A stretch of DNA of 29,185 nucleotides from a virus (IMGVR_UViG_3300022666_000097:1-29185); one strand, 5' to 3'. Shown: positions 1,615 through 25,945, counted from the stretch's first letter. Numbers and translations are program-made. The notes: a model not told the origin generated them from the sequence alone.

Positions 1615-2298
1615 TCAATGGGATAAATACATTATTGGATCTGTCATTCCATTGATGGTAAATGCTTCCATTCTTTCTATACAAGTCGGACAGACACCAC
1701 ATGATTGTCCAGCATTATAACATGACCTGGTAAGCTCATATGGCACACCCAATTCCAAACCAATCTTGACAATATCGCCCTTGGTTAGATGAATGAAAGG
1801 TGCTTCTATTCTAACAGGATGCCATAATGTTGAAATTCTGGTTGTTTCATTCAGTGATTCCAGGAATTCAGGACGGCAATCCGGATATAAAGAATGATCT
1901 CCGCTATGCGCCGCATACATCACGGAATCAATGCCCCTGGCAGCAGCTATTCCGACTGCTATCGATAACAGAATTTGATTCCTATTAGGAACTACTGTTA
2001 TCTTGGCAGATTCATCAGTGTAACCACATTCCGGAACTTCGATATCAGGATTAGTCAACGCGCTGGAATCTATATACTTGAACACCGGTCTGACATCAAC
2101 TATATCATGTCGGATATCAATACCGAGGTCAGGATCCTCTTTCATGAACTTTATCATCTTCTGGGCGTATTCTATTTCTTGCCGATGTCTTTGGCCATAA
2201 TCAAAGGTTATAGCTTCGACATCATAACCGTCGCTGTATAGCTTCCAAAGAAGAGTGGCAGAATCCATACCACCGGAATATATCAAAAGAGACTTCAT
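1615..2298 (-). CDS. queC: 7-cyano-7-deazaguanine (preQ0) synthase QueC
   Basis: SGGMDS PP-loop, FDYGQRH, VPNRN, YPDCRPEF, SCY..CGVCPTC Zn site. Confidence 0.96.
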   Translation of the reverse strand: MKSLLIYSGGMDSATLLWKLYSDGYDVEAITFDYGQRHRQEIEYAQKMIKFMKEDPDLGIDIRHDIVDVRPVFKYIDSSALTNPDIEVPECGYTDESAKITVVPNRNQILLSIAVGIAAARGIDSVMYAAHSGDHSLYPDCRPEFLESLNETTRISTLWHPVRIEAPFIHLTKGDIVKIGLELGVPYELTRSCYNAGQSCGVCPTCIERMEAFTINGMTDPIMYLSH

Positions 2299-2846
2299 TT
2301 TAATAGCTCCAATGTTTCCGATTTGAGACTAGAATTTTCTTTAAATATGCCACGAACAGCAGAACTTTCGGTAATTCCCGGTATCCTTGCTCCCCGTACA
2401 GTCATACAAGTATGATGAGCATTTACCTTCACCATGACTCCCCGAACCCCTGGTATCCAATTCATAAGATAATCGGCTATTTGAGCTGTCATATTTTCTT
2501 GAAGTTGTGGTCTAGAAGCAAATTTCCGAACAGTTCTTGCTACTTTACTAAGCCCCACAATATGAGTCGATGGAATGTAAGCAACAGCGGCAGTTCCCGA
2601 AAATTGCATCAAATGATGGTTACAAAATGATGTGAATTCTATATCTTTTACCATAATTAAATCATCACTAAGGGCTGGAAATATGCCTTTTCCGTGTTCC
2701 AATTCATCCCAATCTCGCCATGATTTGAATTCATCCATCATGCGACGAATCCGGTCAGGAGTATTCATTCTTGCTTCATCATCGAATAATTCTATTGGAA
2801 AATATAATCCAATCTGGCTAGGAACTTCGCAACAGTCTTCGCTCAT
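2295..2846 (-). CDS. folE: GTP cyclohydrolase I
   Basis: TPDR, SFCNHHL (CEHH-like), GLSKVAR, PQLQE, HTCMTVRG. Start set to ATG 2846, which overlaps the queD stop (ATGA). Confidence 0.93.
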   Translation of the reverse strand: MSEDCCEVPSQIGLYFPIELFDDEARMNTPDRIRRMMDEFKSWRDWDELEHGKGIFPALSDDLIMVKDIEFTSFCNHHLMQFSGTAAVAYIPSTHIVGLSKVARTVRKFASRPQLQENMTAQIADYLMNWIPGVRGVMVKVNAHHTCMTVRGARIPGITESSAVRGIFKENSSLKSETLELLK

Positions 2847-3250
2847 GCTGATTCCTTTGCATAATTGTCTTCGGATTCTTTTACAGTTACTTCTATCCAA
2901 TCATCATTATGAAGGTTTGCCATAATTGATATATCCCGAAGTATTTCTTTTGCTATATTTTCAGCAGTTGGATTCTTTTCATCCATTTTTGTTACTGCCA
3001 ATCCCATCTTTTCGAATACCGGTACTAATGGATCCTCGCTATTAAAGATTGCTCGATGATCCCACTTTTGTTTGAAGTATTCTTTGATTCTTCTGTAATC
3101 CAACAACATGCCGCATTGATCTAATGGATTATCAGAATCTATCGTTATGCAAACAGACCATGAGTGACCATGGCACATATTGCAACTTCCCGAATATCCA
3201 AATAACCGGTGTGCTGCATCGAAGGTTACTTTCTGTTGTAGTTCAGTCAT
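2843..3250 (-). CDS. queD: 6-carboxy-5,6,7,8-tetrahydropterin synthase QueD
   Basis: FDAAHRL, C..HGHSW, LDY, WDH, NPTAENIA, C-terminal VKESE. Confidence 0.95.
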   Translation of the reverse strand: MTELQQKVTFDAAHRLFGYSGSCNMCHGHSWSVCITIDSDNPLDQCGMLLDYRRIKEYFKQKWDHRAIFNSEDPLVPVFEKMGLAVTKMDEKNPTAENIAKEILRDISIMANLHNDDWIEVTVKESEDNYAKESA

Positions 3251-3308: not shown

Positions 3309-3323
3309 GTATTTAAAGGTTTT
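3309..3323 (-). promoter_or_regulatory. Archaeal BRE/TATA promoter of queD-folE-queC
   Basis: AAAACCTTTAAATAC on minus, overlapping the end of the upstream transglycosylase gene; nearly identical to 6770-6784. Confidence 0.65.
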
Positions 3324-4461
3324 GCCATCCAAATAAATTGCTTTCAAAACTATTATTATTAGGTTTAACAAATAAATCATGATAATGATCATAAACATAT
3401 CTTGATCCATGTTTATCAAAATCATCGAATATACTAGTTACATTCTGGATAAGATCTTTTTCTCCCAGTGCTTTCGCATATTCTGGCAAGACTTCCATAT
3501 CATCTACAAAGCATTCTATCATGCGGTTGACTTCCAAATATTGATATAAGTTGTGGAAGCTGACCAAAAGTGATGTAATTGGAGTATAATTATAAATATC
3601 TCCTATATTCATACTGGAACATACTGGACAATCACATGGCATACCAATCATAGAATGATCGCTGGATTTTTCTCCCAAGCTAACGAATTTCTTAATATCA
3701 AGCGGAAATCCATACGACATAAACTGGTAGCCTTTTGCCCAACTGCTGCTATCGAAGGTAAGAGCAGAATCATATTTGTTTGCCAACATAGATAATGATA
3801 TCATATTAGCAGGGGCACTCACTCCGAAGAAGTGACAATTATTCAGCACGGATTCTTCTCCCCTTTCTATCAAATATAGATAGGCCACTAGTTTCAAGTA
3901 TACGTTAGTACTGGGATGAATACCTAATGCCCATCCATCGAAGCTAAAATCTTTCACTACATGATACCATTGATCTATCTGATCATATGTCTTTCCATGC
4001 AAAACATTGTATAATTTAAAGTCATAATTTTGTCTATTTTCTTCGAATATTTTAAAATTCCGGCACGATTCTGACAAAGCTGCATCAAAATCCATAAAAC
4101 TAGGAGGTACATCCAAGTTCATACCGATGTCAGAGTTCCGTTCCAACCATCTCAGTATTTGAATCGCATTTAAGTCAACTGGTTTCCCCTTTCTTTCGAA
4201 TGTCATCATCTGAAAGCCGCCACTGTCTCCCAATATTATAGTATCATCGGGATACTTCATGCGACTTCGATGGTCATAATCTTCTTCATATGACAATCTA
4301 TAGTATGCATTTTGGAGAATTATATTATAATCAAAGAATGATTTTCCAGGATTAAAGAATTCAAAATTTCTGCCGGCAAATTCTTGATGTCGTAACCAAT
4401 GATACATCGTGTGGTTACAAATTGCGGGAACATAATTCGAACCTTTCGGAATTGTTTTCAT
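3313..4461 (-). CDS. dpdA: TGT/DpdA-family guanine transglycosylase, paralog A
   Basis: GDSGGFQ, MNLD, VLHG, GWALG, HFFG, TFDSSS, CDCPVC-x21-H; next to the preQ0 genes. Start at ATG 4461 (MKTIPKG) matches the paralogs. A DNA substrate is inferred. Confidence 0.82.
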   Translation of the reverse strand: MKTIPKGSNYVPAICNHTMYHWLRHQEFAGRNFEFFNPGKSFFDYNIILQNAYYRLSYEEDYDHRSRMKYPDDTIILGDSGGFQMMTFERKGKPVDLNAIQILRWLERNSDIGMNLDVPPSFMDFDAALSESCRNFKIFEENRQNYDFKLYNVLHGKTYDQIDQWYHVVKDFSFDGWALGIHPSTNVYLKLVAYLYLIERGEESVLNNCHFFGVSAPANMISLSMLANKYDSALTFDSSSWAKGYQFMSYGFPLDIKKFVSLGEKSSDHSMIGMPCDCPVCSSMNIGDIYNYTPITSLLVSFHNLYQYLEVNRMIECFVDDMEVLPEYAKALGEKDLIQNVTSIFDDFDKHGSRYVYDHYHDLFVKPNNNSFESNLFGWQNL

Positions 4462-4463
4462 TT

Positions 4464-5600
4464 CTACCAACTCCTAAATAAATTAGTTGGTTTGATTCTA
4501 TTTTCTGGTTTTGGAACAAATAATTTCTTATATTTACTATATATATATTCTGTATTATAATTATCAAAATCATTTAATATATTGACTATATCTGATATTA
4601 ATATATTTTCGTTTACTGATTTCCCGTATTGGATTAAAGCTTGCATATCATCTGCCAATGCATTTATCATTCTATTGGTTTCTATGAATTGATATAAATT
4701 ATGATATGATATTAATGATGGGGACATTGTGTCATATTTATATATTTCTTTTATGTCAGTAGACTGGCATACTGGACAATCGCATGGCAAACTTTTCATA
4801 GAATTTTTTGTTTGTCCTAATCTAGATCTATGCCTAACGTCCAATGGAAAGTAATAATCCGAAAATCTGTACCCAGTAGCCCAAGTGCTACTATCAAATG
4901 TTAATGATAGATCAAATTTTTTACTTAACATACTTAGTGCGATCATGTTATCCATGGAACTTATTCCGAAAAAATGAGTATTTTGGTATATCGACTCTTC
5001 TCCATGTTCCAATAGATATAAAAATGATAATATCTTTAAATAAGTATTCGTATGAGGCCGAATTCCTATTGCCCACCCATCAAAATCGAAATCTTTTACA
5101 TGAGAATACCAAGTTATTATGTCATTATATGATTTTCCATGCAATATATTATACAGCTTAAATATATAATTTTCTCTATTATTTTGAAATAATTCAAAAT
5201 TTTGAATAGATGTCCTTAAAGAATATTCAAAATTATCGGTGGGCGGGCTATCTAAATTCATTCCGATGTCTGCATTATTTTCCATCCATCTAAGTATTTT
5301 TATAGGATCTATATTTATACTAGTACCTTTTTTATTTGCCATCATTATTTGAAAACCGCCACTATCTCCTATCAATACCATATCATCAGGATAATTCATT
5401 CTGGACCGATGATTATTATCTTTTTCTGACGATGATATATCATATGCATTTATTAATTGCATATCATAGTCAAAGAATGAATTTCCTTTATCAAAGAATC
5501 TAAATCCTATATCATTATACATCATATTGGTCATTTGGCATTTTAAAGTATGACTAGATACCGCCGGAACATAATTCGACCCCTTTGGTATAATTTTCAT
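4464..5600 (-). CDS. dpdA: TGT/DpdA-family guanine transglycosylase, paralog B
   Basis: GDSGGFQ, MNLD, ILHG, GWAIG, HFFG, TFDSST, CDCPVC-x21-H; ATGA overlap with paralog C. Confidence 0.82.
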   Translation of the reverse strand: MKIIPKGSNYVPAVSSHTLKCQMTNMMYNDIGFRFFDKGNSFFDYDMQLINAYDISSSEKDNNHRSRMNYPDDMVLIGDSGGFQIMMANKKGTSINIDPIKILRWMENNADIGMNLDSPPTDNFEYSLRTSIQNFELFQNNRENYIFKLYNILHGKSYNDIITWYSHVKDFDFDGWAIGIRPHTNTYLKILSFLYLLEHGEESIYQNTHFFGISSMDNMIALSMLSKKFDLSLTFDSSTWATGYRFSDYYFPLDVRHRSRLGQTKNSMKSLPCDCPVCQSTDIKEIYKYDTMSPSLISYHNLYQFIETNRMINALADDMQALIQYGKSVNENILISDIVNILNDFDNYNTEYIYSKYKKLFVPKPENRIKPTNLFRSW

Positions 5601-6748
5601 ACTATTTCTCCTGATGAAATAAAAGACATCATATTGTTACCTGGATTGCTCATGTCCCGCAAGACCATACTATGCCGGAAGTTATCATAGACATGACTGA
5701 CGCCCTTTTTCTGGATTTGATCAATAATTATTCTGGCTATCCTAACAGTCTTTTCTTCACCAACCGACTTAGCATATTCCATAAATACGATATCATCGGA
5801 TACCATATTGTTTATCATTCTATTTACTTCTATGTACTGGTATAGATCATGCAGAAGAAGGGATACATAAGCACCTGGACTTTCTTGGGAATACAAATCA
5901 TCGATCTCTAACCGTCGGCAAACCGGACATCTACAAGGAATTGATTGCATGGTCTTCTTTGCATCTCTTCCGAATTCAATACCATATCGTATATCTTTCG
6001 GGAAATAAAACCGTCGGTATCTCATTCCGGTTATATAACTGCTAGAATCGAAAGTCATCGAACCTCCGAATTCATGACTAAGCATAGCAAGTACTAGCAT
6101 ATTCTTGATACCGCTTACCCCGAATAAATGAAAGTTGGTTTCCCAATGGGCAGCATTATTTTCCCTAAGGAACATATAACCGATTATTTGCAAATAGATA
6201 TTATCTGCCGGTCTAGCCCCAAAAGCCCATCCATCGAATTCATAATCTTTCACACCAGAATACCACTTGATCATCTCGGGTAATGTTTTTCCATGCAGGA
6301 CATTATATAATTTAAAGTCATAATTTTCTCTATTATTCTGAAATACGGTGAAATTTTCTTGACTCGTTTTCAAAGACTTATCAAAATTTGTCCAAGGAGG
6401 ACTGTCCAGATTCATTCCGATGTCTGCATTATTTTCCATCCAACGGAGTATCTGAAGTGGTGTTATGCCTATGTCTTGGCCACCTAATTGTGCCTTTGCG
6501 ATCTGAAATCCTCCGCTGTCTGCTATCAGACAATATTCTTTCGGATATCCATATGCTTCCCTAAAATCTGGCGTCTGTTTATCGATCTCATAAGGAACCG
6601 TCGTTAAAAGATATGGATATTGAAAAACAGATTCCGGAGTAAAGAATTTACTATCCTTTCCTTTAAAAATGAAGTCCTTTTCTTTCCAGCGGGTTTCTGC
6701 CGTACTGACCGCTGGAACAAAAGTAGCTTGTTTTGGTAACACAATCAT
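5597..6748 (-). CDS. dpdA: TGT/DpdA-family guanine transglycosylase, paralog C
   Basis: ADSGGFQ, MNLD, VLHG, GWAFG, HLFG, TFDSSS, CRCPVC-x22-H. Start at ATG 6748 (MIVLPKQATFVPAVS) from paralog alignment and promoter position. Confidence 0.82.
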   Translation of the reverse strand: MIVLPKQATFVPAVSTAETRWKEKDFIFKGKDSKFFTPESVFQYPYLLTTVPYEIDKQTPDFREAYGYPKEYCLIADSGGFQIAKAQLGGQDIGITPLQILRWMENNADIGMNLDSPPWTNFDKSLKTSQENFTVFQNNRENYDFKLYNVLHGKTLPEMIKWYSGVKDYEFDGWAFGARPADNIYLQIIGYMFLRENNAAHWETNFHLFGVSGIKNMLVLAMLSHEFGGSMTFDSSSYITGMRYRRFYFPKDIRYGIEFGRDAKKTMQSIPCRCPVCRRLEIDDLYSQESPGAYVSLLLHDLYQYIEVNRMINNMVSDDIVFMEYAKSVGEEKTVRIARIIIDQIQKKGVSHVYDNFRHSMVLRDMSNPGNNMMSFISSGEIV

Positions 6749-6769
6749 AAAATTATAGTGATTACGATA

Positions 6770-6784
6770 GTATATAAAGGTTTT
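6770..6784 (-). promoter_or_regulatory. Archaeal BRE/TATA promoter of the transglycosylase operon (probably leaderless)
   Basis: AAAACCTTTATATAC ends about 21 nt before ATG 6748; no RBS visible. Confidence 0.65.
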
Positions 6785-6823
6785 GGTAACCAAAAATATA
6801 AAAGAAAAGGAGGATAATTCTAT

Positions 6824-7477
6824 TTAGATATATCCCAGTGGTTCGCCCCCTTCCACGAACTGGACATGGATCTGTCCGGCATTGATCAGGTGCGGGAAAT
6901 CCTTCCCTGCTGAGATCAACCGATTCCGAACACTATTCACGGCAGGTTCATCCATACCAGAAGCTCGCAAAGTATTGGCAATAGCTCCCGTGATGGCAAA
7001 TCGATTTCTCTTCATCTCGGAAATATCAAGAACCGGCTTTCCTACCGATTCTTCCGGAACTGTCCGGATCTCCCGGAGTTCAGCAACGGTAGGTGGTTTC
7101 ATAATCACCACTTCTTTTTTCGGCATTTCTGGTGCCTTGATATCCATGACCTGAGCCGCGGGAAGATCCTGAATCAAGACCAATGCCTTATCGGGTTCTG
7201 GTTCAGGCGTCCTGATCTGCTGACCAGATTCATCAACGATGACTTCGACCAATGCTGCCTTATCGGTATGCAGAACCTTCCTCATGTTGTGGCGGAATGT
7301 ATTGCTGAAACTCAACTTCGGAACTTCAGCAATGACATTAGAGGGGAGAGGATCCCCGACATGCACTGCAATGTGACTCGTCTTCGGCGTTCCTTTTCTG
7401 CTGAGTCCCTTGTCAACCTGATAATACTGCACTTCTCTTCCGCATATCTTGCACTTATCTGCTTTTTCGCCTTCCAT
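6824..7477 (-). CDS. Two-domain hypothetical protein with CxxC..H N-domain and Pro/Glu-rich linker; paralog of 7495..7893
   Basis: CKICG..AVHVG; C-domain NRFAITGAIANTLRASGMDE; GAGG RBS; visibly more GC-rich than its neighbours. Confidence 0.8.
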   Translation of the reverse strand: MEGEKADKCKICGREVQYYQVDKGLSRKGTPKTSHIAVHVGDPLPSNVIAEVPKLSFSNTFRHNMRKVLHTDKAALVEVIVDESGQQIRTPEPEPDKALVLIQDLPAAQVMDIKAPEMPKKEVVIMKPPTVAELREIRTVPEESVGKPVLDISEMKRNRFAITGAIANTLRASGMDEPAVNSVRNRLISAGKDFPHLINAGQIHVQFVEGGEPLGYI

Positions 7478-7494
7478 AAATCTCGCCTCATATC

Positions 7495-7893
7495 TTAATG
7501 ATTTCTGATGACTGTCATGCCGTACTTGGCAGCGGTTTCGATGTTGGTATCGTAGTTGCTGCCTCTCGCGAACATCTCTTTTCTGACTTCGTTCGCGGTC
7601 TTTTCATCCATGCCACCGTCTTTCATGACATTGATGATGTCGGTGATCATGGTGAACCGATTCATTCCGGTTGCATCGAAGACCATCTTGGCTTCATTCC
7701 CATCATGGGGAATCATTTCCCGCAGGTTCTTGCGGTAGGTCGCGCTAATCTCATGGATGTCAATCATGACGGCGTCTGTTGGCATTTCTCCTTCATGGAA
7801 TGCTCTCTTGATTGTTCGACCTTCCTTATTGATCTTAGCATATACGACAGGCTTTCCGCAAACCGGACATGTGTTTTTCTTATTGTACATCAT
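7495..7893 (-). CDS. Hypothetical protein; compact paralog of 6824..7477
   Basis: CPVCG..AFHEG; NRFTMITDIINVMKDGGMDE; GAGGTGG RBS. Confidence 0.8.
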   Translation of the reverse strand: MMYNKKNTCPVCGKPVVYAKINKEGRTIKRAFHEGEMPTDAVMIDIHEISATYRKNLREMIPHDGNEAKMVFDATGMNRFTMITDIINVMKDGGMDEKTANEVRKEMFARGSNYDTNIETAAKYGMTVIRNH

Positions 7894-10697: not shown

Positions 10698-11084
10698 TTA
10701 AGATAAGATACTAATTGTTCCGGATAGTACCTTATCAATTACCACATACTCGGGTGCCATGATGCACATTAAATATTGATGAAATAGTATATCAAATACG
10801 AAAGCACTCGACAATCCCATGAAAATAACTGCTATTATAGACCATATAGCTGCTCCTTCTCTTCCCATACCAGATCTATCGGGTTGATAATTTTTATACC
10901 ACTTCCAACAATATTTAGCAGTGATCACAGCCATTATGATCCCAAACAGCATTGCTATCATTCCAGCAATTCCGTCGACTACCGTACCTTTTACAGCAAT
11001 TTCATAACTGTACGAGGTTACATTTTTGGTACCATTTACTACTGAACCTATCATCTCGGGTGTCAAATCCATACTATTCCTCAT
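10698..11084 (-). CDS. Membrane protein with two predicted TM helices
   Basis: Two hydrophobic stretches (GIAGMIAMLFGIIMAVITA; AIWSIIAVIFMGLSSAFVF); start overlaps the queE stop. Confidence 0.7.
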   Translation of the reverse strand: MRNSMDLTPEMIGSVVNGTKNVTSYSYEIAVKGTVVDGIAGMIAMLFGIIMAVITAKYCWKWYKNYQPDRSGMGREGAAIWSIIAVIFMGLSSAFVFDILFHQYLMCIMAPEYVVIDKVLSGTISILS

Positions 11085-11740
11085 TACTTTCCTTTGTTTC
11101 TAATATGAAGACGATCACAATAATTCGTTCCCAATCGCATCGCGATCTTCCAGGTCATCGGTCCACTAATATCAAGTTGGTGTCGTTCTGCGCCTCCCGG
11201 CATCAGCCAAATTTTGTTTGCAGGAAGTTCATACAATTCGATACATTCTTTTATTTCGCTCTGGAGATACATCCAAGGTTGGGTTCCTATCACAAACTTG
11301 AAATGAACATTATCAAGATCTTTCCAATTACTGAAATAATCCCGGCGATCCTGTGGAGATGGTATCGAATCCTTCTTAGGACTGATCACCAAATATCGGA
11401 ACATTTCCAAGTATTCGGAATCATTATTCTTTATGAGTCCATTCGTTTCAATATCAATATATCTAGTATTGATACAGGTCATGACTTCTTTCCAGTCATG
11501 AAGAAAAGGTTCTCCTCCGGTAATTACCACCCGGCAATTATCATTCTGTCGTGAAAGCATTTCATTTATGCGAAAGATTAATCTGTCATTGGTCATCATT
11601 TCATGCCGACTATGATTGGTGTCACAATTACTGCAATGCAAATTACAGCCAGAACTCCTAACAAATATGACTGGTTGTCCCATAGCAGGACCTTCTCCCT
11701 GTATGGAATAGAATATTTCGTTTATCGGAATTTCAGACAT
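11084..11740 (-). CDS. queE: 7-carboxy-7-deazaguanine synthase QueE (radical SAM)
   Basis: EIFYSIQGEG, CNLHCSNCD, ITGGEP, IETNG, SPK, RLH. Start at 11740 (or 11746); the longer ORF crosses its own promoter. Confidence 0.93.
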   Translation of the reverse strand: MSEIPINEIFYSIQGEGPAMGQPVIFVRSSGCNLHCSNCDTNHSRHEMMTNDRLIFRINEMLSRQNDNCRVVITGGEPFLHDWKEVMTCINTRYIDIETNGLIKNNDSEYLEMFRYLVISPKKDSIPSPQDRRDYFSNWKDLDNVHFKFVIGTQPWMYLQSEIKECIELYELPANKIWLMPGGAERHQLDISGPMTWKIAMRLGTNYCDRLHIRNKGK

Positions 11741-11759
11741 AATCATTGATTTGAATTCG

Positions 11760-12310: not shown

Positions 12311-12925
12311 TTAAAATTCAATATAATCATTCAAAAATTCTTCATATCCTGTTTTCAATTCAGATGCAGTAAAGTATTTCAAGATAGCTTTCTGATCGGG
12401 ATTTCTGTCCAAGAAACTATCTAAATATACAAATGCTACTTGCGGTCTTTCTCTTAATGCATGCCAATATGCACCGGCTTGTTTGATATGCGTATCATAA
12501 GGAACTCCTGTCTTGATATCGATAAGAGTAAGGTCACCGTCTATCCGGCATAACAAATCAAGACGACCGGCATATCTAGGTTCATGGCAAAATAATGCCG
12601 TTTCTACGCATATCGGACTTATATTTAGATCGAGTTGTTCCCACATATCAAGACATCGCCTGATTCGTTCTATTACTTCATCCCGTTTGACTCCATATAT
12701 ACCGTCCCGGGGCAATGGAATCAATTCCCGGGAATACCTCCTTAGAATGTGATAATGAACCAGAGTTCCTATGGACATTGATGGAGTTGTTCTAATAGGC
12801 TTTCCTTCATTCTTCTTTTTTCCGATGATTGTAGTCACCGAAGGATACTTATCATCGCCCAGGCAATAGAATCTGCCTTGTTTTGATTCATCGACTGTAA
12901 ATCTGGAATTGTTCTTTATTATCAT
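12311..12925 (-). CDS. PD-(D/E)XK nuclease (RecB/Cas4-like viral exonuclease)
   Basis: YPSVTTI, GTLVH, VE, YAGRLD, IDIKT, Q..AY. Confidence 0.88.
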   Translation of the reverse strand: MIIKNNSRFTVDESKQGRFYCLGDDKYPSVTTIIGKKKNEGKPIRTTPSMSIGTLVHYHILRRYSRELIPLPRDGIYGVKRDEVIERIRRCLDMWEQLDLNISPICVETALFCHEPRYAGRLDLLCRIDGDLTLIDIKTGVPYDTHIKQAGAYWHALRERPQVAFVYLDSFLDRNPDQKAILKYFTASELKTGYEEFLNDYIEF

Positions 12926-15388: not shown

Positions 15389-15895
15389 TTATTCGGCAAC
15401 ATCTACTATTTCTGGCTTTTCTAATAAATATGGAAATTCTACTGGTGTTCGACTATTCACATTAGTATAGCAACATCCATTTTTGTCTCTAAATACACGA
15501 CCTTCAATATTATAACATTCGTAACTTCCGTCAGGCATCAATTCCTTAAAGATTTGACTGCATCGATTATTTTGCCAACATGTATCACTGATTTGGTTCC
15601 ATTCATCGTTTGTGCCTCTTAATGGACGAAGCGGTTCATACTTTGCCAATGTGCTAAATAAGTCTATACAGAACGGAGCCGATAATCCCGAATGTCCTTG
15701 TGTTGCAAAAACTTTTACCAATTCGAGTACATGATTCGCCATCATTTTATTCATTTCATCGCCATCAAAGTAACCAGCAAATTCTAGTTCTCGGTTGGCA
15801 TGTTTATATAATGATGATTCTTTGGGATCATGATATTCTTCTTTTGGAACATATTCATAATTATCATCGGTGTATGTTAATTCTTCTTGTATCAT
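15389..15895 (-). CDS. Hypothetical protein of viral type
   Basis: Clean ORF in operon; the F..QGHSG.SA and WQN.RCS..FK pattern resembles uncharacterised phage proteins. Confidence 0.75.
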   Translation of the reverse strand: MIQEELTYTDDNYEYVPKEEYHDPKESSLYKHANRELEFAGYFDGDEMNKMMANHVLELVKVFATQGHSGLSAPFCIDLFSTLAKYEPLRPLRGTNDEWNQISDTCWQNNRCSQIFKELMPDGSYECYNIEGRVFRDKNGCCYTNVNSRTPVEFPYLLEKPEIVDVAE

Positions 15896-16385: not shown

Positions 16386-16976
16386 TCACCTGGATGGAAT
16401 TACATCTTTGATACCATTCTGATCAGTAACTACATTAACCAAAGATCCTACTGGATAACCTTCGGACTGCAACTTTTTGGAACTTCCATTCTTTTCTATC
16501 AAGGTATAAGCACCTTTACAATCAATATCATTATTTCGGAGTGTATCAAATATTGCTCGCAAAGTTCCGCCGGTGCTTACAACATCATCAACTATTATTA
16601 CTGTATCTCCTGATTTTAGACCATTTATATACATTACGTTCTTGGAATATCCCGTTTGTTGATTTAATTCAAGTTCACCCGGCAACCCATACTTGCGCTT
16701 TCTGATTACTAACCATGGTACATCAGTAATGTATGATAACATGGTAGCTATAGGAAGTCCCATTGCTTCCGGTGCTAAAATATAATCACACCACTTGAAC
16801 ATATCGGGATCGATGCCGTACATCATTTCTGTACAAACATCCTTCAGGAACAGGGAATCAATAGGAAGCACTCCATCTGACAGGGAATAACAAAAATAAG
16901 GATAATCTCCCTTCCAGACGATGGGAGATCCCTTAATCGAATCAATCAATCTATTTATGGTTTGCATAAAAGTCAC
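16386..16976 (-). CDS. hpt: Archaeal-type purine (hypoxanthine/guanine) phosphoribosyltransferase
   Basis: YPYF..SDG, EAMGLP, RKRKYGLPGE, TGYSK, PRPP loop IVDDVVSTGGT. Confidence 0.88.
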   Translation of the reverse strand: MTFMQTINRLIDSIKGSPIVWKGDYPYFCYSLSDGVLPIDSLFLKDVCTEMMYGIDPDMFKWCDYILAPEAMGLPIATMLSYITDVPWLVIRKRKYGLPGELELNQQTGYSKNVMYINGLKSGDTVIIVDDVVSTGGTLRAIFDTLRNNDIDCKGAYTLIEKNGSSKKLQSEGYPVGSLVNVVTDQNGIKDVIPSR

Positions 16977-18461: not shown

Positions 18462-19514
18462 TTATATAGTAGTTGCAACACAAAGCTGATCTATTCCGAT
18501 AGCCCTGATATTGATTGCCGCGTTGATATCCCTGTCATGGATAGCCCCACATTTAGGACATTTCCATTCACGAATATTCAAGGACATCTTTTCTTCCTTA
18601 TGACCACAGCAATGACAAATCTTTGATGAAGGTTCCCATTGACCTATTTCTATTATCGTCTTGCCTGACCATTCTGCTTTGTACTTGATTTGCCTGATAA
18701 ATTCCGACCATCCCGCATCACTTATTGATTTAGCTAAATGATGATTCTTTAACATGCCGGATATGTTAAGTGATTCCAAGACAATAGCATCATATTCATC
18801 AACCAATTTCCGAGATAGCTTGTGCTGGAAGTCTAATCGCTGATTGGCTATCTTTTCATGCTGCTTGGCAACCTTCAATCGGGCCTTTTCTGAATTCTTG
18901 GAACCTTTCTGCTTTCTGCTGAATCTTTTCTGGAGAACCACTAATCGTTTTTCGGATTCTCTATAAGGCTGGATGCCATCTATCTTATCACCTTTCGATG
19001 TGGTGATATAAGATAACAATCCTACATCTATACCTATGATGTTTTCATTGGACACTGGTTTTGAAATCGGTTTTTCCAATCCATCATCCACTTGAAAAGA
19101 TACATAATACTTCCCACTCTTGGTTTTCGATATGGTAGTAGTTTTTATCTTTCCGATAATTGGTCTATGTAACCGAATTTCAATATCCCTTATTTTAGTT
19201 ACCGAAAGCATACATGATTTAGTATCTAACTTAACATTTTCGCCTTGAAATTGGATGGATTGATTATCTCTTAACTTCTTTGGAGTCGGATAACCTCTTC
19301 TGTTGCCATTCGTATCCGATTTGAAGAAGTTCTTAAATGCGGTTCCAAGATTTCGCAAACTAGAACGAAGAATCTTATCTGGCACCTCGTTTAACCATGC
19401 CTGTTCATCCTTGAGTCCAAGCATTGATTTCAATCCATCGGGTAACTTGTCTGCCTTTCTGGTTTTGGCCGACGTGAGCAGCACGCTACATTTGGTAGCA
19501 TCAATCCTAAACAA
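18462..19514 (-). CDS. tnpB: TnpB RNA-guided endonuclease body lacking the N-terminal HTH (possible pseudogene fragment)
   Basis: WLNEV..L..AFKNFF, RuvC-I GIDVG, RuvC-II VLE, Zn finger CHCC..CPKC, RuvC-III HDRDINAAINI; weak TTG start. Confidence 0.92.
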   Translation of the reverse strand: MFRIDATKCSVLLTSAKTRKADKLPDGLKSMLGLKDEQAWLNEVPDKILRSSLRNLGTAFKNFFKSDTNGNRRGYPTPKKLRDNQSIQFQGENVKLDTKSCMLSVTKIRDIEIRLHRPIIGKIKTTTISKTKSGKYYVSFQVDDGLEKPISKPVSNENIIGIDVGLLSYITTSKGDKIDGIQPYRESEKRLVVLQKRFSRKQKGSKNSEKARLKVAKQHEKIANQRLDFQHKLSRKLVDEYDAIVLESLNISGMLKNHHLAKSISDAGWSEFIRQIKYKAEWSGKTIIEIGQWEPSSKICHCCGHKEEKMSLNIREWKCPKCGAIHDRDINAAINIRAIGIDQLCVATTI

Positions 19515-19528
19515 CTCTAAAGAGGTAT

Positions 19529-20026
19529 CTAGTAAGCCGCTGCCTGAGCAACGTGGCTATCATAGTATTGAAGGCCTGTTTTCAGGTCCATTAGAAATAA
19601 TTCCTTTTTGAAGTGTATATCAAGTAGGTCGTTATTGCAGCTAATTTTCGCTAGCATATCTAGTGTTCCTGCATAAGGTGGATTTTTATTAAATAGCGAC
19701 GTTTCTACAAAAAACGGCTGAATACTTAAATGTAAGTCATTCCACATTTTTATGCAGCGATTTATTCTGCCATAAACTTCTTCCCTTGGTATATTCCAGA
19801 TAGGATTACACGACACTGGTAATACATTCTTAGAATAACGACCAAGTATTTTTTTGTGGACAATGGTTCCTATGTGGGCACTAGGCCCAGGTCCCTTTGA
19901 TTTACCGGTATTCTTTTTGTGTCCAATAATTGTAGTTACAGAAGGATATGGTATTTCGTCTTTAAAATAAAATCGACCATTTGGCGTTTGCTTCCTGTAA
20001 TACGCAGATTTATCATTAACAAGCAT
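19529..20026 (-). pseudogene. PD-(D/E)XK nuclease, paralog of 12311..12925, C-terminally truncated
   Basis: YPSVTTIIG, GTIVH, VET, YAGTLD, MDLKT, QAAAY then TAG where the paralog has TGG and about 50 further residues. Confidence 0.7.
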
Positions 20027-22228: not shown

Positions 22229-25200
22229 TTATTTAAATGCAAATAATCCCACTTTTTGTTTCCTTGGTTTGATTACTTCTTTTGGTTTCTCGACTTCTTC
22301 ATATCCAAATAATGATTCTTGGTCGAGAATCTTTTTTCCAGTATTTATATCTATTCCTATAGCTTCGAAAAGTCTTTCCAATGGCGGTTTCAATTGATTT
22401 TCGATATACCACTCAGAATCTATCCGGCCGTTACCATGATTTCGTATCCATTCCGGAGTATCAACCAATTCACTAATGTTACCTCTGGATGCACCTGGTA
22501 ATGCCATATACATAGCACGGTCTCCCAAACCATATGGTTGTTCGCCCCGGGATTGCATCTTCTTGCATACGGTAACATGAGGCTGTACATTCTTATATTT
22601 ATTTAAGTCACCGACCTTTCGGCTTAGAATTAATTTATTGGCAAGGTCATCATTTGTTCTTATGTCCTTCAAGCCGCGAACTTCTTCTATAACAGAATTA
22701 GTAAGGTTCCATGCCCCAGTTACATCACCTTCCTGCAAGACCATATGGAGAACCTTGTCCATGGTTTCGCCGACTAATTTAACCCAATCTCGCCGGCGGA
22801 CTTCAATACCCCTGTATTTCATTTTGTCTTTCCATCTATCTTTTGATGGTTCAAAGATCCACATGGCATATCGTTTCTTTTCGAAAATAATTGCTCTTTC
22901 TGCCCAGCATTCAAAATCGATTTCCATAGGTGGAGGAAGTTTCGTTAGCATAGCATCATGAATAATTTTTGCCTTTTCCTTACCTTCGTCTGGTGTTTTT
23001 ATATTATTCAATTTTATAAATACACTATCTGTATTATGTAATAATATTTGCCCACAACTATCAACAAACATATGATCATTATCAACAGTTATATCATAAA
23101 CATAACCATCATATTCTTCTTCTATTATCTTTGTTGATACTTGGTTGTCATCATGAGAATATGTTTCCCGTAGTCTATATTCGCCTTTCGATTGATTATA
23201 AGAAAGGCTATATTTTTTGTTCATCATATTCAATAACAGAGTTAAATCACTTATTAGTTCCAATGAAAGGCTGCTATATGAAATCCTTCCTTTTTTATCA
23301 ATACTTCCATCACCTTTAAGCATATTTTCATATATTATTTGTTGATAGTGGGTGTCTATATTGAAAACAAAATCAGGCAATCTTTTATTTCGACAACCTT
23401 GCCCACAAAGAGCCGAAAAAAATGCGCATGTAAATTGATTTCCAATTCTCAATGATAACGTATTATCTTCATATTCATGATCCTTATAATACTTTAATTC
23501 TTTGTTAGTTCTTAGTATATTGGGATATATCATATTGGTTACTAAACTAAAATAATCATCTCGTAATTGTCTTAACCATTCTTCATCACCGCAAGATATA
23601 CTAAATATGGCATTTCCACAAGAATTTGTCAAGTGATTAGACGCAGCACCTTCGGAAACGAATGCTCCCATCAATCTACATAATTTTTCTAAATCATTCC
23701 CCGATACATATCGTTTTATACTTACTTCATTCTTTCTATTTGTCCATCCAAATGAAATTCTCTTACCATTATCCACTAGCTTAAAACATACTATTTTTTC
23801 CCTCTTTTTATATACAATACCATATTTATAATGTTTAATATATTTATATAAATCAATGATATTGTTCGAATCATGATCTATGTTTTCTATAATACTAGCA
23901 ATTTTCCTTTTCCCTATTATATCAGTTGGTTTTGTTTCAATTAATCTATCATCCAAATATGTCATTATTGAATGATCTTCGGTTACTCTAGTTTCTCCAT
24001 ATTTCTGAATAACACGATATATTCGTTTGGAATTTTTATGCCTCATCACACATCTAATAGAATTCCATACTGGATTAAGATCGGTATCGAATGATAATGC
24101 AAAATATTCTCCTTTGCATACCGCATATTCTTTTTCGCCATGCAAAATTATACCGTTCGAAGATAATTCATCAAATAATGATTCCATATTTCGTATAACA
24201 ATATTTCCATCGGATTTTTTTAGTGTAACAAATCGATCAGCAGTTACACTGTCTCCCCCAACTACCCTACAATCTACCAATGATTCAGCAGTTTCTTTAG
24301 TCAATGCAATTGCCATTCTGCCAACTGATGTTACTGAATTTGCGAGCCTAGGTTCATATAAACGGCCACTCGGAGCCCCAGTATACCCATAAAATGAATT
24401 CAATAAAATCTTGACTGCATATTGTTGATTATCGTAGAATTCTTTCTCGTCTTGGTCATCGGTTTCCTTCATCATCTTCTTCAATGCGACTCTTTTATTA
24501 TATAACCGAGTTAAGATCCTAGGCATTATTCCTTCATAGACAGAATGATCAGAATATCTTACGTTATTCGGAGCTAGAATCGTCTTAATTCCGACATTTT
24601 CGTCATCGATGATAGATGACCAACATATATTGAACGCCCTTATAGCCGAAGGATAAAGACTCTTATAGTCCATTACGATAAGTTTTTCCTGGAGTCCTCT
24701 TTCTGGTTCAAAAACTGTAGCTCCCTCTACTGATTCTCCCATTTGTTTTTTTCGTGTTTTCAATGGCCATAATCTATCTTCTTTATAGAATTCTTTCAAC
24801 AATAATGATTCTATCCGGCGAGATTGTCCACCATTGATAACTTCATGCAATAACAATCCTGATTCTTTACTGATACTAATATATCGATCTATTAATTTTA
24901 ATTGGTTTATTATATCTTGTAAAAGATCTGCATCCCTGACAGCATAATCTATGAATTCTTGAAGTTCTGATTCACTTCCTTCCAGCCATATATGCCGCAT
25001 CTGACTAGCTTTGATATCCAACTTAGGACGATTCAATAATTCCTTGGATACATTTTCCAAGCTGTAACTATTCAAAGAATAATTATTTTTGATAGCTTCC
25101 AGTAAATCGATTGATACCCGTCCTATAATATTGACTTCTCGCTTGCTTCCGAATTCTTTAATAACAAACGGCGATCCATCGCGCCCAAAATTATTACATA

Positions 25201-25945
25201 CTTGCAATATATCCATTCGTTCTAATATATACGGATAATCGAACATAAATCCATTGAATGACATAATAACATCAGGATCATAATCCTTTATTATATCACA
25301 AAATGTTTCCAGCATCCAATATTCATCATTGCAAAATTTTATGACTTCATTATCATTACCATGCTTTGCAACTAATACCATCGATTTCCCATTATTAAAA
25401 CTAATCGAAATCATGATAATGGGATCTTCTTTCGGATTCGGAACTCCTGACACCGGAGGGCATACTTCGATATCGAATCCTAGTATTCTGATCGGAGCAT
25501 CTTCTTGGATATCAAGACCCTTTATTTCATTACCATCAGTTTCAATCCATTGCATACCACCGATATTAAAATCTGTTAAAAATCTTTGCGTCGCGTAAAG
25601 AACATCTGCTTCGTAACATTCTTCTATGAATTCAGATCCTTGCAGAAAGTCGCGAACTCTCGGAACTTGACTCGGTTGATAAACAATAACTTTGATAACT
25701 TTGGTTTTTTCGGTCTGGAATCCAATGGGAAGAAATTTCATAACCGGATGAAAACTTTCTACTTCCGGAATTTCTTCCAAGATCCTGCATGCCATATCGA
25801 AATCTGTTGGTTTTATATAAAAATATGGCGCGAATCCAGATACAACATGACTGACAGAAGATCCATCATCGGATCTACCATACATCATAATGCCAGGCTT
25901 ATTATTATTATTAATATATTTTGTACTTATTAGTTGAAATTTCAT
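22229..25945 (-). CDS. polB: Family B DNA polymerase precursor with one intein (832 aa after splicing)
   Basis: Exo I FDIE, Exo II FNGFMFDYPY, Exo III YAVRD, motif A DYKSLYPS, motif B KILLNSFYG, motif C GD/TDS split by the intein, KKRY. Confidence 0.97.
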   Translation of the reverse strand: MKFQLISTKYINNNNKPGIMMYGRSDDGSSVSHVVSGFAPYFYIKPTDFDMACRILEEIPEVESFHPVMKFLPIGFQTEKTKVIKVIVYQPSQVPRVRDFLQGSEFIEECYEADVLYATQRFLTDFNIGGMQWIETDGNEIKGLDIQEDAPIRILGFDIEVCPPVSGVPNPKEDPIIMISISFNNGKSMVLVAKHGNDNEVIKFCNDEYWMLETFCDIIKDYDPDVIMSFNGFMFDYPYILERMDILQVCNNFGRDGSPFVIKEFGSKREVNIIGRVSIDLLEAIKNNYSLNSYSLENVSKELLNRPKLDIKASQMRHIWLEGSESELQEFIDYAVRDADLLQDIINQLKLIDRYISISKESGLLLHEVINGGQSRRIESLLLKEFYKEDRLWPLKTRKKQMGESVEGATVFEPERGLQEKLIVMDYKSLYPSAIRAFNICWSSIIDDENVGIKTILAPNNVRYSDHSVYEGIMPRILTRLYNKRVALKKMMKETDDQDEKEFYDNQQYAVKILLNSFYGYTGAPSGRLYEPRLANSVTSVGRMAIALTKETAESLVDCRVVGGDSVTADRFVTLKKSDGNIVIRNMESLFDELSSNGIILHGEKEYAVCKGEYFALSFDTDLNPVWNSIRCVMRHKNSKRIYRVIQKYGETRVTEDHSIMTYLDDRLIETKPTDIIGKRKIASIIENIDHDSNNIIDLYKYIKHYKYGIVYKKREKIVCFKLVDNGKRISFGWTNRKNEVSIKRYVSGNDLEKLCRLMGAFVSEGAASNHLTNSCGNAIFSISCGDEEWLRQLRDDYFSLVTNMIYPNILRTNKELKYYKDHEYEDNTLSLRIGNQFTCAFFSALCGQGCRNKRLPDFVFNIDTHYQQIIYENMLKGDGSIDKKGRISYSSLSLELISDLTLLLNMMNKKYSLSYNQSKGEYRLRETYSHDDNQVSTKIIEEEYDGYVYDITVDNDHMFVDSCGQILLHNTDSVFIKLNNIKTPDEGKEKAKIIHDAMLTKLPPPMEIDFECWAERAIIFEKKRYAMWIFEPSKDRWKDKMKYRGIEVRRRDWVKLVGETMDKVLHMVLQEGDVTGAWNLTNSVIEEVRGLKDIRTNDDLANKLILSRKVGDLNKYKNVQPHVTVCKKMQSRGEQPYGLGDRAMYMALPGASRGNISELVDTPEWIRNHGNGRIDSEWYIENQLKPPLERLFEAIGIDINTGKKILDQESLFGYEEVEKPKEVIKPRKQKVGLFAFK
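23033..24250 (-). mobile_element. Intein (406 aa) with LAGLIDADG-type homing endonuclease in polB motif C
   Basis: GGD|SVTAD..VTEDHS..LMGAFVSEG..MLKGDGS..VYDITV..LLHN|TDS; visibly more AT-rich than the exteins. Confidence 0.93.

Follow-up and report, generated by a model that had tools for sequence, protein, structure and literature searches.

Organization of the locus

The stretch of DNA analysed here (IMGVR_UViG_3300022666_000097:1-29185, below called the window) is a linear virus record of 29,185 bases, estimated to cover ~21% of its genome, and nearly all of its genes lie on the minus strand. It carries three adjacent genes of the tRNA-guanine transglycosylase (TGT) family, ordered C-B-A in the direction of transcription and followed by genes for QueD, FolE and QueC; a QueE-like gene lies 4 kb upstream of the array (Table 1). 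The stop codon of C overlaps the start codon of B in an ATGA at positions 5597-5600, and a gap of two bases separates the stop codon of B from the ATG of A (4461). The three genes are thus translationally coupled. As judged by the open reading frame (ORF) coordinates, the overlap and the gap, the three tightly coupled paralogues of a preliminary description of this DNA are real. A and B share 53% identity and A and C 39%, C being 39-41% identical to the other two. Alternative TTG starts in the ORF listing would extend C to 398 aa (ORF 5597-6793, start 6793) and A to 385 aa (ORF 3313-4470, start 4470).

The preliminary description also placed the array behind one promoter. A candidate is indeed found in the TTTATATA box in front of C, and it stands as a prediction only. 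Across the window the TTTATATA pattern was counted 18 times (6.5 expected), and a second box precedes the two candidate ATGs of QueE by 16-22 nucleotides (nt). These boxes resemble the TATA elements of archaeal promoters whose mRNAs have a short leader or none, again as a prediction. A scan for sigma-70 promoters was uninformative (37 sites vs 31 expected). In the metatranscriptome run X15, small contigs covered positions 5591-5746, 6210-6559 and 6834-6900 only, and may reflect DNA carry-over. An 11-mer, GTTACCAAAAC, occurs twice on the minus strand, at 6781-6791 just upstream of the TATA-like box and at 6730-6740 just inside the C coding sequence.

The gene set for 7-cyano-7-deazaguanine (preQ0) synthesis (FolE, QueD, QueE, QueC) is complete, since QueD, FolE and QueC follow A, QueE is located upstream, and both QueC and FolE pass their NCBIfam cut-offs. 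QueD scored 77.9 bits against TIGR03367, under the cut-off of 89.25. The QueE-like gene, whose ORF runs to 11908 with a likely start at ATG 11746 or 11740, obtained 51-70 bits with the NCBIfam QueE models, each under its cut-off. No amidotransferase, QueF or decarboxylase was detected in a Pfam scan of the 30 window ORFs. Viral TGT genes are here encoded together with 7-deazaguanine synthesis genes, an arrangement kept in related loci, and the proposal that catalytically intact paralogues of the TGT/DpdA type sit inside a viral preQ0 module was borne out.

Table 1. Positions of the TGT-family array, its predicted promoter element and the preQ0 genes (window numbering)
Feature	Position	Strand	Description
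Paralogue C	5597..6748	minus	DpdA-like transglycosylase, 383 aa from ATG 6748; loop G-A-R-P; G-x-R-x-R kept
Paralogue B	4464..5600	minus	DpdA-like transglycosylase, 378 aa; loop G-I-R-P; present or absent among near-identical strains
Paralogue A	3313..4461	minus	DpdA-like transglycosylase, 382 aa from ATG 4461; loop G-I-H-P
TTTATATA box	6771..6778	minus	predicted archaeal TATA element, 22 nt upstream of the C start codon
QueD (6-carboxytetrahydropterin synthase)	2843..3250	minus	Pfam PTPS 83 bits; AAGGAG upstream of ATG
FolE (GTP cyclohydrolase I)	2295..2900	minus	Pfam 162.9 bits; NF006826 163.4 vs cut-off 162
QueC (7-cyano-7-deazaguanine synthase, makes preQ0)	1615..2298	minus	Pfam 214 bits; TIGR00364 187.6 vs cut-off 150.3
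QueE-like radical SAM enzyme (7-carboxy-7-deazaguanine synthase)	11084..11746	minus	PHROG 2076, 140 bits

Catalytic motifs and fold

A, B and C each carry DSGGFQ, MNLD, LHG, FDSS and a C-x-C-x-x-C followed by His; LDVPP is found in A and LDSPP in B and C. Every motif listed in the preliminary description, including both Asp motifs, the zinc site and the loop and LDVPP/LDSPP variants, was recovered in the three proteins. With a profile of the family, each ORF gave E<=1e-150, so that the array matches are not due to chance. The Pfam TGT model PF01702 recognized A and B (30.4 and 36.5 bits) over its cut-off of 26.3, and C (23.2 bits) under it. Residues D79, D117, D236, C273, C275, C278 and H300 (B numbering) are invariant in 41 members of the family, and the two catalytic Asp are kept in 187 and 191 of 193 aligned proteins. 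The catalytic Asp and zinc Cys align to D95/D249 and the zinc Cys of the archaeal enzyme ArcTGT (1iq8).

The AlphaFold2 model of B (mean predicted local distance difference test score, pLDDT, 92.3) matched ArcTGT 1iq8 with a Z score of 25.3, bacterial TGT with 23.8, QTRT2 and bacterial DpdA 7ui4 with 22.6 each, and Cap10 with 17.3. Unrelated barrels remained at Z<=13.1, and Foldseek agreed with this ranking. The model thus shows a TIM-barrel TGT fold with a zinc subdomain. ArcTGT was also the sole sequence match in the PDB (E 1.8e-5). Neither a PUA nor a TGT C-terminal domain was found in A, B or C with Pfam at E<=0.01, and the C-terminus of the B model consists of helices only, as expected from the earlier statement that the proteins have no recognizable tRNA-binding extension. 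No PHROGs family (E<=0.001) and no PADLOC family (E<=1) was obtained for the three proteins. A search of the reference phages CAjan, 9g, nt-1 and HVTV-1 with the Pfam TGT model was also negative, a result of little weight because its initial screen yielded no candidate.

Subfamily assignment and the question of a tRNA substrate

A family profile built from 41 members scored 100.1 bits with the PA5oct protein QCG76197.1, 66.7 with BCSR5 QRE00062.1 and 28.8 with nt-1 YP_008125322, vs 17.1 for archaeal ArcTGT and 8.8 for bacterial TGT among the tRNA enzymes. The PA5oct and BCSR5 proteins are listed as DpdA3 and DpdA2, respectively, in Supplementary Data S1 of Hutinet 2023, and the nt-1 protein is the founding DpdA2 in Hutinet 2019. 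At the gene level, the nt-1 DpdA2 gene was matched with E 7.5e-8 (28 bits). Profile-profile alignment by hhalign gave a probability of 99.4% for the PA5oct protein, which represented the DpdA3 type (phiST, CP220, PA5oct) in these comparisons.

Other assignments were rejected. The DpdA1 type (9g/CAjan) is ruled out by the absence of a profile match in CAjan and 9g at E<=10 and by an hhalign probability of 2.8% (E 0.016) with the CAjan DpdA. The DpdA4 type of haloarchaeal viruses (DUF6610, PF20314) is likewise ruled out, PF01702 being the sole Pfam match and the profile search of HVTV-1, also at E<=10, empty. For bacterial DpdA of the Dpd system, neither a PADLOC match at the threshold given above nor DpdB or DpdC neighbours were detected among the 30 window ORFs. 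ArcTGT/TgtA (TIGR00432) gave 35.1, 43.1 and 46.7 bits vs a cut-off of 350, and the C1-C3/PUA domains are missing; bacterial tRNA TGT (TIGR00430) gave 20.8 and 22.9 bits for A and B vs a cut-off of 306.75, and no match for C.

In a tree of 50 rows, obtained by a quick search and with long nt-1 and BCSR5 branches, a branch with support 100 sets the two tRNA enzymes apart. The members of the window family group together in a distinct clade (support 94), next to the groups of DpdA2 and of PA5oct. Taken together, these comparisons place the window family in a clade of its own, far from the tRNA enzymes; its closest relatives are proteins that have been published as DpdA2 and DpdA3. The earlier label 'archaeal-TGT-like' holds for fold and motifs and not for family, because profile scores favour DpdA3/DpdA2 over tRNA TGTs. 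The family is large: at 50% clustering, 2283 representatives were found at E<=0.001 and 581 at E<=1e-30.

Archaeal hosts use preQ0 for tRNA archaeosine, and one or more of the paralogues could act on tRNA, for instance at the archaeosine position of host tRNA. ArcTGT is indeed the best match by sequence and fold among solved or curated families, and in A and B conserved Arg residues, possibly in contact with nucleic acid, have been replaced (see below). However, the 35-47 bits obtained with TgtA are far from its 350-bit cut-off, the family profile gives ArcTGT just 17 bits, C-terminal tRNA-binding domains are absent, and the genes lie in a replication module in a window where a tRNA gene search found none. 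We consider action on tRNA very improbable.

B also matched two unannotated phage proteins by tblastn, in NCTB (LT598654, 9883-10716, E 3e-6) and in Vibrio phage 2.275.O (MG592671, 330426-330887, E 9e-4). Both phages appear with preQ0 genes and no DpdA in the table of Hutinet 2019 (part 1 of 2), and the two proteins are candidates for the missing transglycosylases.

Copy number, duplication and loss

The gene order QueE-(membrane, PKD)-PCNA-RFC-orf180-orf132-orf217-TGT-QueD-FolE-QueC is common to related viral contigs, and the module QueE-PCNA-RFC-...-TGT(1-3)-QueD-FolE-QueC is syntenic in 11 related loci (L numbers below designate loci). The content of the TGT slot varies. It holds C-B-A in the window and in L002/L092 (a single contig, 99% identical), C-A in L004 and L005, a C-type and an A-type gene in L009, a broken and an intact copy in L006/L007, and a C-type gene alone in L008. 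A single gene from other clades occupies the slot in L010, L012 and L094, and L181 is likewise single-copy.

In a paralogue tree of 65 rows, with branch support from the Shimodaira-Hasegawa-like approximate likelihood ratio test (SH-aLRT), the C-types form one clade (96) and the A-types together with B another (100), B being sister to the A of the window (95). The intact copy of L006/L007 branches at the base of the A/B clade (83). The broken copy upstream of it carries an in-frame stop and a frameshift and is identical over 1200 nt in both contigs. Since the C-type and A/B clades separate in this tree, two old duplications are implied, first between C and A/B and then between A and B. Between A and B, the non-synonymous rate (dN) is 0.39 and the synonymous rate (dS) is saturated. 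Closer comparisons gave dN/dS of 0.105 for A vs L004 (55 synonymous and 30 non-synonymous changes), 0.03 for C vs L011 (30 and 4) and 0.024 for B vs L002 (9 and 1); each copy is under purifying selection.

L004 and L005 have no B, and their single downstream gene has a chimeric B/A 5' end: in L004, the gene after C consists of the first 39 nt of the window B and then A, with TCGAATTATGTTCC shared at the switch. This form is the footprint of the deletion of a 1139-nt unit by recombination between the B and A 5' ends. Run X7 includes a contig (depth 22.7) that lacks precisely these 1139 nt (4422 to 5562), along with others that cover B at depths of 8-10; both forms therefore coexist in one sample.

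These data bear on two further explanations. The first, raised in the preliminary description, is a heteromer resembling the eukaryotic QTRT1/QTRT2, with C-type and A-type proteins as obligate partners. The TGT family acts as dimers according to Hutinet 2019, the B model matches QTRT2 (Z 22.6), the genes are translationally coupled, and each of the four informative contexts (window/L002, L004/L005, L009 and L006/L007) has another copy upstream of its A/B-type gene, a broken one in L006/L007. Against this, every copy keeps all catalytic residues, unlike QTRT2, and none of seven checked proteins is a two-domain fusion. Moreover, the C-type occurs alone in L008, an intact copy stands beside a decayed partner in L006/L007, and B is variable among strains. 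As C-type and A/B-type genes are each found on their own, partners have decayed or been deleted and the catalytic residues are all kept, the comparative data speak against this option, and an obligate heteromer is unlikely.

The seven proteins just mentioned were candidates for fusions of two TGT domains: six with two matched stretches, from the best 150 representatives, and that of L016. Each had an insert within one domain, and fusion was rejected. Intein hallmarks at DSGGFQ were present in all four inserts examined by sequence. The predicted inteins lie inside this catalytic motif, between GDS and GGFQ (L016:8462-10954 and proteins P0052, P0053 and P0123), and some DSGGFQ inserts are of homing-endonuclease size.

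The second explanation is redundancy, the additional copies providing dosage or spares vs a host counter-measure with specificity equal among them. A copy number from 1 to 3, one decayed copy and one strain-level deletion would agree with this. However, the paralogues are old (39-53% identity, dS saturated) and each is under purifying selection, and plain redundancy does not predict the conserved, clade-specific changes beside the active site described in the next section. We consider redundancy very improbable.

In the single-copy relatives, radical SAM and glycosyltransferase genes lie directly upstream of the TGT gene and a thymidylate-synthase-like gene is located nearby (L010:4922-6642, L010:10297-10914, L094:13523-14131), a hint at possible further DNA modification.

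Differences between the paralogues near the active site

As stated in the preliminary description, the paralogues differ in the base-pocket loop (GIHP, GIRP and GARP in A, B and C). By profile alignment this G-x-X-P loop corresponds to G-V-V-P of ArcTGT, the alignment to solved TGTs being uncertain by one position. The ArcTGT loop and its bacterial counterpart G-G-L-A-V are presumed to face the 7-substituent of the base. Lys is the usual residue at X (109 of 192 family proteins), ahead of His (15) and Arg (12). Residue X is Lys in 22 of 23 aligned rows of single-copy relatives and His in all ten A-type rows. Arg is found in B and in those C-types that are paired with an A-type (window, L009), and Lys in the unpaired C-type of L008. 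L006/L007 have Asp in the intact gene and Glu in the broken copy.

Two other positions distinguish the clades. A Trp directly follows the nucleophile motif in the A/B clade, where others have Tyr or Phe. In the conserved G-x-R-x-R behind the nucleophile Asp, both Arg are replaced in the A of the window and the second Arg in B, and the motif is intact in C. In bacterial TGT, the backbone of the RNA is contacted by the corresponding Arg residues.

The loop raises the possibility that the enzymes differ in the base they insert, with residue X choosing among pathway products such as preQ0, ADG (an amide) and CDG (an acid), rather than in the sites at which they act. QueF makes preQ1, which bears a positive aminomethyl group. 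Among close relatives only L006/L007 carry QueF (Pfam 49 bits, directly downstream), and it is there that residue X is Asp, with Glu in the broken second copy; the distant locus L023 likewise combines QueF with Glu in the loop. The alignment with G-V-V-P of ArcTGT and the conservation of a clade-specific residue argue in the same direction. Published phages carry dCDG and dADG, as reported in Hutinet 2023. On the other hand, the window has just the preQ0 genes, complete to QueC, with no amidotransferase, QueF or decarboxylase, and in a very small sample L034 has QueF without an acidic residue. Because of L034, the link between loop residue and 7-substituent is a lead and not a result. Two viral scans for more QueF-linked relatives of the Asp-loop enzyme gave just the same two contigs. 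A split by inserted base is the main rival to a split by site; this rival is in our view rather unlikely, and the two are compatible.

Proposed function of the array

We favour, with a probability of about 55%, the reading that A, B and C are three independent DNA transglycosylases with diverged specificity. Each paralogue, acting alone, would exchange guanine in viral DNA for preQ0 or a close 7-deazaguanine, the preQ0 being supplied by the adjacent FolE-QueD-QueE-QueC pathway. The three would probably differ in the sequence context they recognize or in the base they prefer, and this wider specificity would give broader protection against host restriction.

DNA rather than tRNA is suggested as the substrate because the profile is nearest to DpdA3/DpdA2, the tRNA enzymes split off in the tree and PUA/C-terminal domains are absent. 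The occurrence of a C-type gene alone in L008, the single-copy clades, the broken L006/L007 copy and the loss of B in L004/L005 all argue for independent action. Diverged specificity is proposed because the loop residue is clade-specific and Arg residues of G-x-R-x-R are replaced in A and B. We infer that preQ0 would be the inserted base and that the modification would serve an anti-restriction role.

Several points weigh against this reading. The best single matches by fold and by NCBIfam are to ArcTGT, a tRNA enzyme. The loop comparison carries the one-position uncertainty given above, and the link between residue X and the 7-substituent comes from one virus (two contigs) and one distant locus, with L034 as a counterexample. 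The dN/dS of B is computed from just 10 changes, and the variable copy number also fits plain redundancy. For every member of the clade, activity and substrate are predictions from sequence, and further modification genes may exist in the genome, ~21% of which is in the window.

A broader interpretation is that the array represents a modular modification system of variable copy number, in which the DpdA of each cassette would have a separate specificity, for sequence context and/or for the 7-substituent, the latter read by the K/H/R/D residue of the pocket loop. We put this forward tentatively, at somewhat less than even odds. If so, these viruses would tune guanine replacement and the base inserted by gain and loss of cassettes through unequal crossover, and the clade would offer a natural paralogue series for reading the determinants of DpdA specificity.

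In either case, the clade bears on what sets the target motif and the base choice of DpdA. The DpdAs published so far vary in target motif and, very widely, in the level of modification, and tests of DpdA3 and DpdA4 in E. coli were tried without success according to Hutinet 2023. The clade offers natural series with one, two or three paralogues in genomes that are otherwise syntenic, strains distinguished solely by one cassette, and a candidate pocket residue that tracks the pathway end product, with testable predictions of specificity. It also extends the candidates for 7-deazaguanine DNA modification to sludge and digester viruses, possibly infecting methanogens.

Rarity of tandem arrays

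Among 170 viral and metagenome loci with a TGT-like ORF (stretches of at most +-10 kb), 8 carry more than one. They correspond to 7 contigs, all close kin of the window. In each of the 32 genome loci and in each reference phage locus, one TGT-like gene was found. A search with the CAjan DpdA1 returned 240 places in 237 GenBank phage records, and therefore at most 3 records with two places. Microbacterium phage Megan (NC_073368) has two adjacent annotated TGT-family genes beside QueC-like, QueD, QueE and FolE genes. Of the 91 viral genomes in Data S1 of Hutinet 2023, Mycobacterium phage Knocker alone appears in two DpdA columns, and no genome has two entries in one column; the main text of that paper does not mention the double entry of Knocker. 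Part 1 of 2 of the table of Hutinet 2019 gives one DpdA per virus.

A literature search retrieved no paper on multiple DpdA copies, a 2024 Microbiology and Molecular Biology Reviews article (PMC10966956) being outside its reach. The preliminary description knew of no described triplet: none appeared in this search or in the two published catalogues, and the survey of loci that it proposed yielded, besides kin of the window, the tandem DpdA1 doublet of Megan in GenBank. The tandem arrangement is rare and not unique. What is new is one slot holding one, two or three copies, the strain-level loss of B and the clade-specific loop residue.

Virus, neighbouring genes and host

The module contains an archaeal-type RFC small subunit (219.8 bits, under the equivalog cut-off of 303), as well as the family-B polymerase and the archaeal-type purine phosphoribosyltransferase described below. 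The gene between RFC and QueE is read as PCNA-like because of this position and its conservation in related loci; searches of Pfam, PHROG and NCBIfam gave no match for it. The genes at 6824-7477 and 7495-7893 (minus), immediately before the array on its upstream side, are mutual distant paralogues (31% over 83 residues, E 2e-8) whose products each begin with an N-terminal CxxC zinc-ribbon-like segment. Without Pfam, NCBIfam or PHROG family, they precede the TGT slot also in L002, L008, L009 and L011.

Homing-endonuclease domains are fused to or inserted in pathway genes of relatives (L009:3357-4517, L006:8603-9808, L004:2245-3438), with NUMOD3 and endonuclease I before QueD and HNH before FolE; the FolE ORF of L004 is about twice the usual length. 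A gene at 16386-16976 (minus) encodes an archaeal-type hypoxanthine/guanine phosphoribosyltransferase (NF040646, 189 bits vs cut-off 200), which could conceivably recycle guanine freed by the exchange into the GTP pool that feeds FolE.

The family-B DNA polymerase gene (22229-25945, minus) is interrupted by an intein that shows LAGLIDADG-like signals; the matches to Pfam Intein_splicing and LAGLIDADG_3 are under the respective cut-offs. A TnpB/Cas12f-like gene of the IS605 family lies directly behind a second PD-(D/E)XK nuclease copy (18462-19514 and 19529-20026, minus). This copy is 44% identical to that at 12311-12925, ends at the match of residue 153 of 204 and looks cut short by insertion. 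The gene at 15389-15895 (minus) of this apparently archaeal virus is a strong match (129.6 bits) to Pfam Tad3, which inhibits the type I Thoeris defence.

Proteins of relatives were found on contigs of 137-148 kb. Near-identical DNA (at least half of the sampled words) was present in 14 runs labelled as sludge, biofilm, biogas, digester and wastewater metagenomes. In one archaeal phylum, 115 of 201 genomes have genes with 37-48% identity to the phosphoribosyltransferase, a match that names no host. The family member L181 lies on a contig binned with a Methanotrichaceae metagenome-assembled genome; this contig has transposases and a D5-like primase, and is a host hint only. We take the source to be an uncultured virus of archaea, which may infect methanogens.

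Comparison with known systems

Bacterial DpdA (7ui4), by its PDB title a DNA preQ0 insertase, has the same fold as the B model (Z 22.6), whereas the window proteins have no PADLOC match, as stated above, and no PDB sequence match to 7ui4. The best fold match to B is ArcTGT of P. horikoshii (1iq8/1j2b; Z 25.3 over 305 residues), with aligned Asp and zinc sites; we take preQ0 to be its substrate. In contrast to ArcTGT, the window proteins have no C-terminal domains, model residues 1-345 aligning to 27-355 of a chain of 577, and they are shorter (378-385 aa vs 577-582 aa for ArcTGT/TgtA).

The pair gp02 and gp03 of Megan is located directly upstream of the QueC-like, QueD, QueE and FolE genes. 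It matches the CAjan DpdA1 subfamily and comes from a bacterial host, and represents an independent tandem dpdA array of two copies; no discussion of it was found in the literature search.

The closest known systems are DpdA2 and DpdA3 of Vibrio phage nt-1, Burkholderia phage BCSR5 and Pseudomonas phage PA5oct. They are homologous to the window family, have FolE, QueD and QueE (and in some cases QueC) alongside, lack tRNA-binding domains as the window proteins do, and fall in the tree on one side with them, the tRNA TGTs on the other. The window family differs in forming a separate clade with ~25% identity and shorter proteins (378-385 vs 450-544 aa), and it keeps the CxCxxC...H zinc site that is absent from the PA5oct protein. 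Finally, it is found in archaeal-type viruses as one to three tandem copies, whereas the published genomes list one each.

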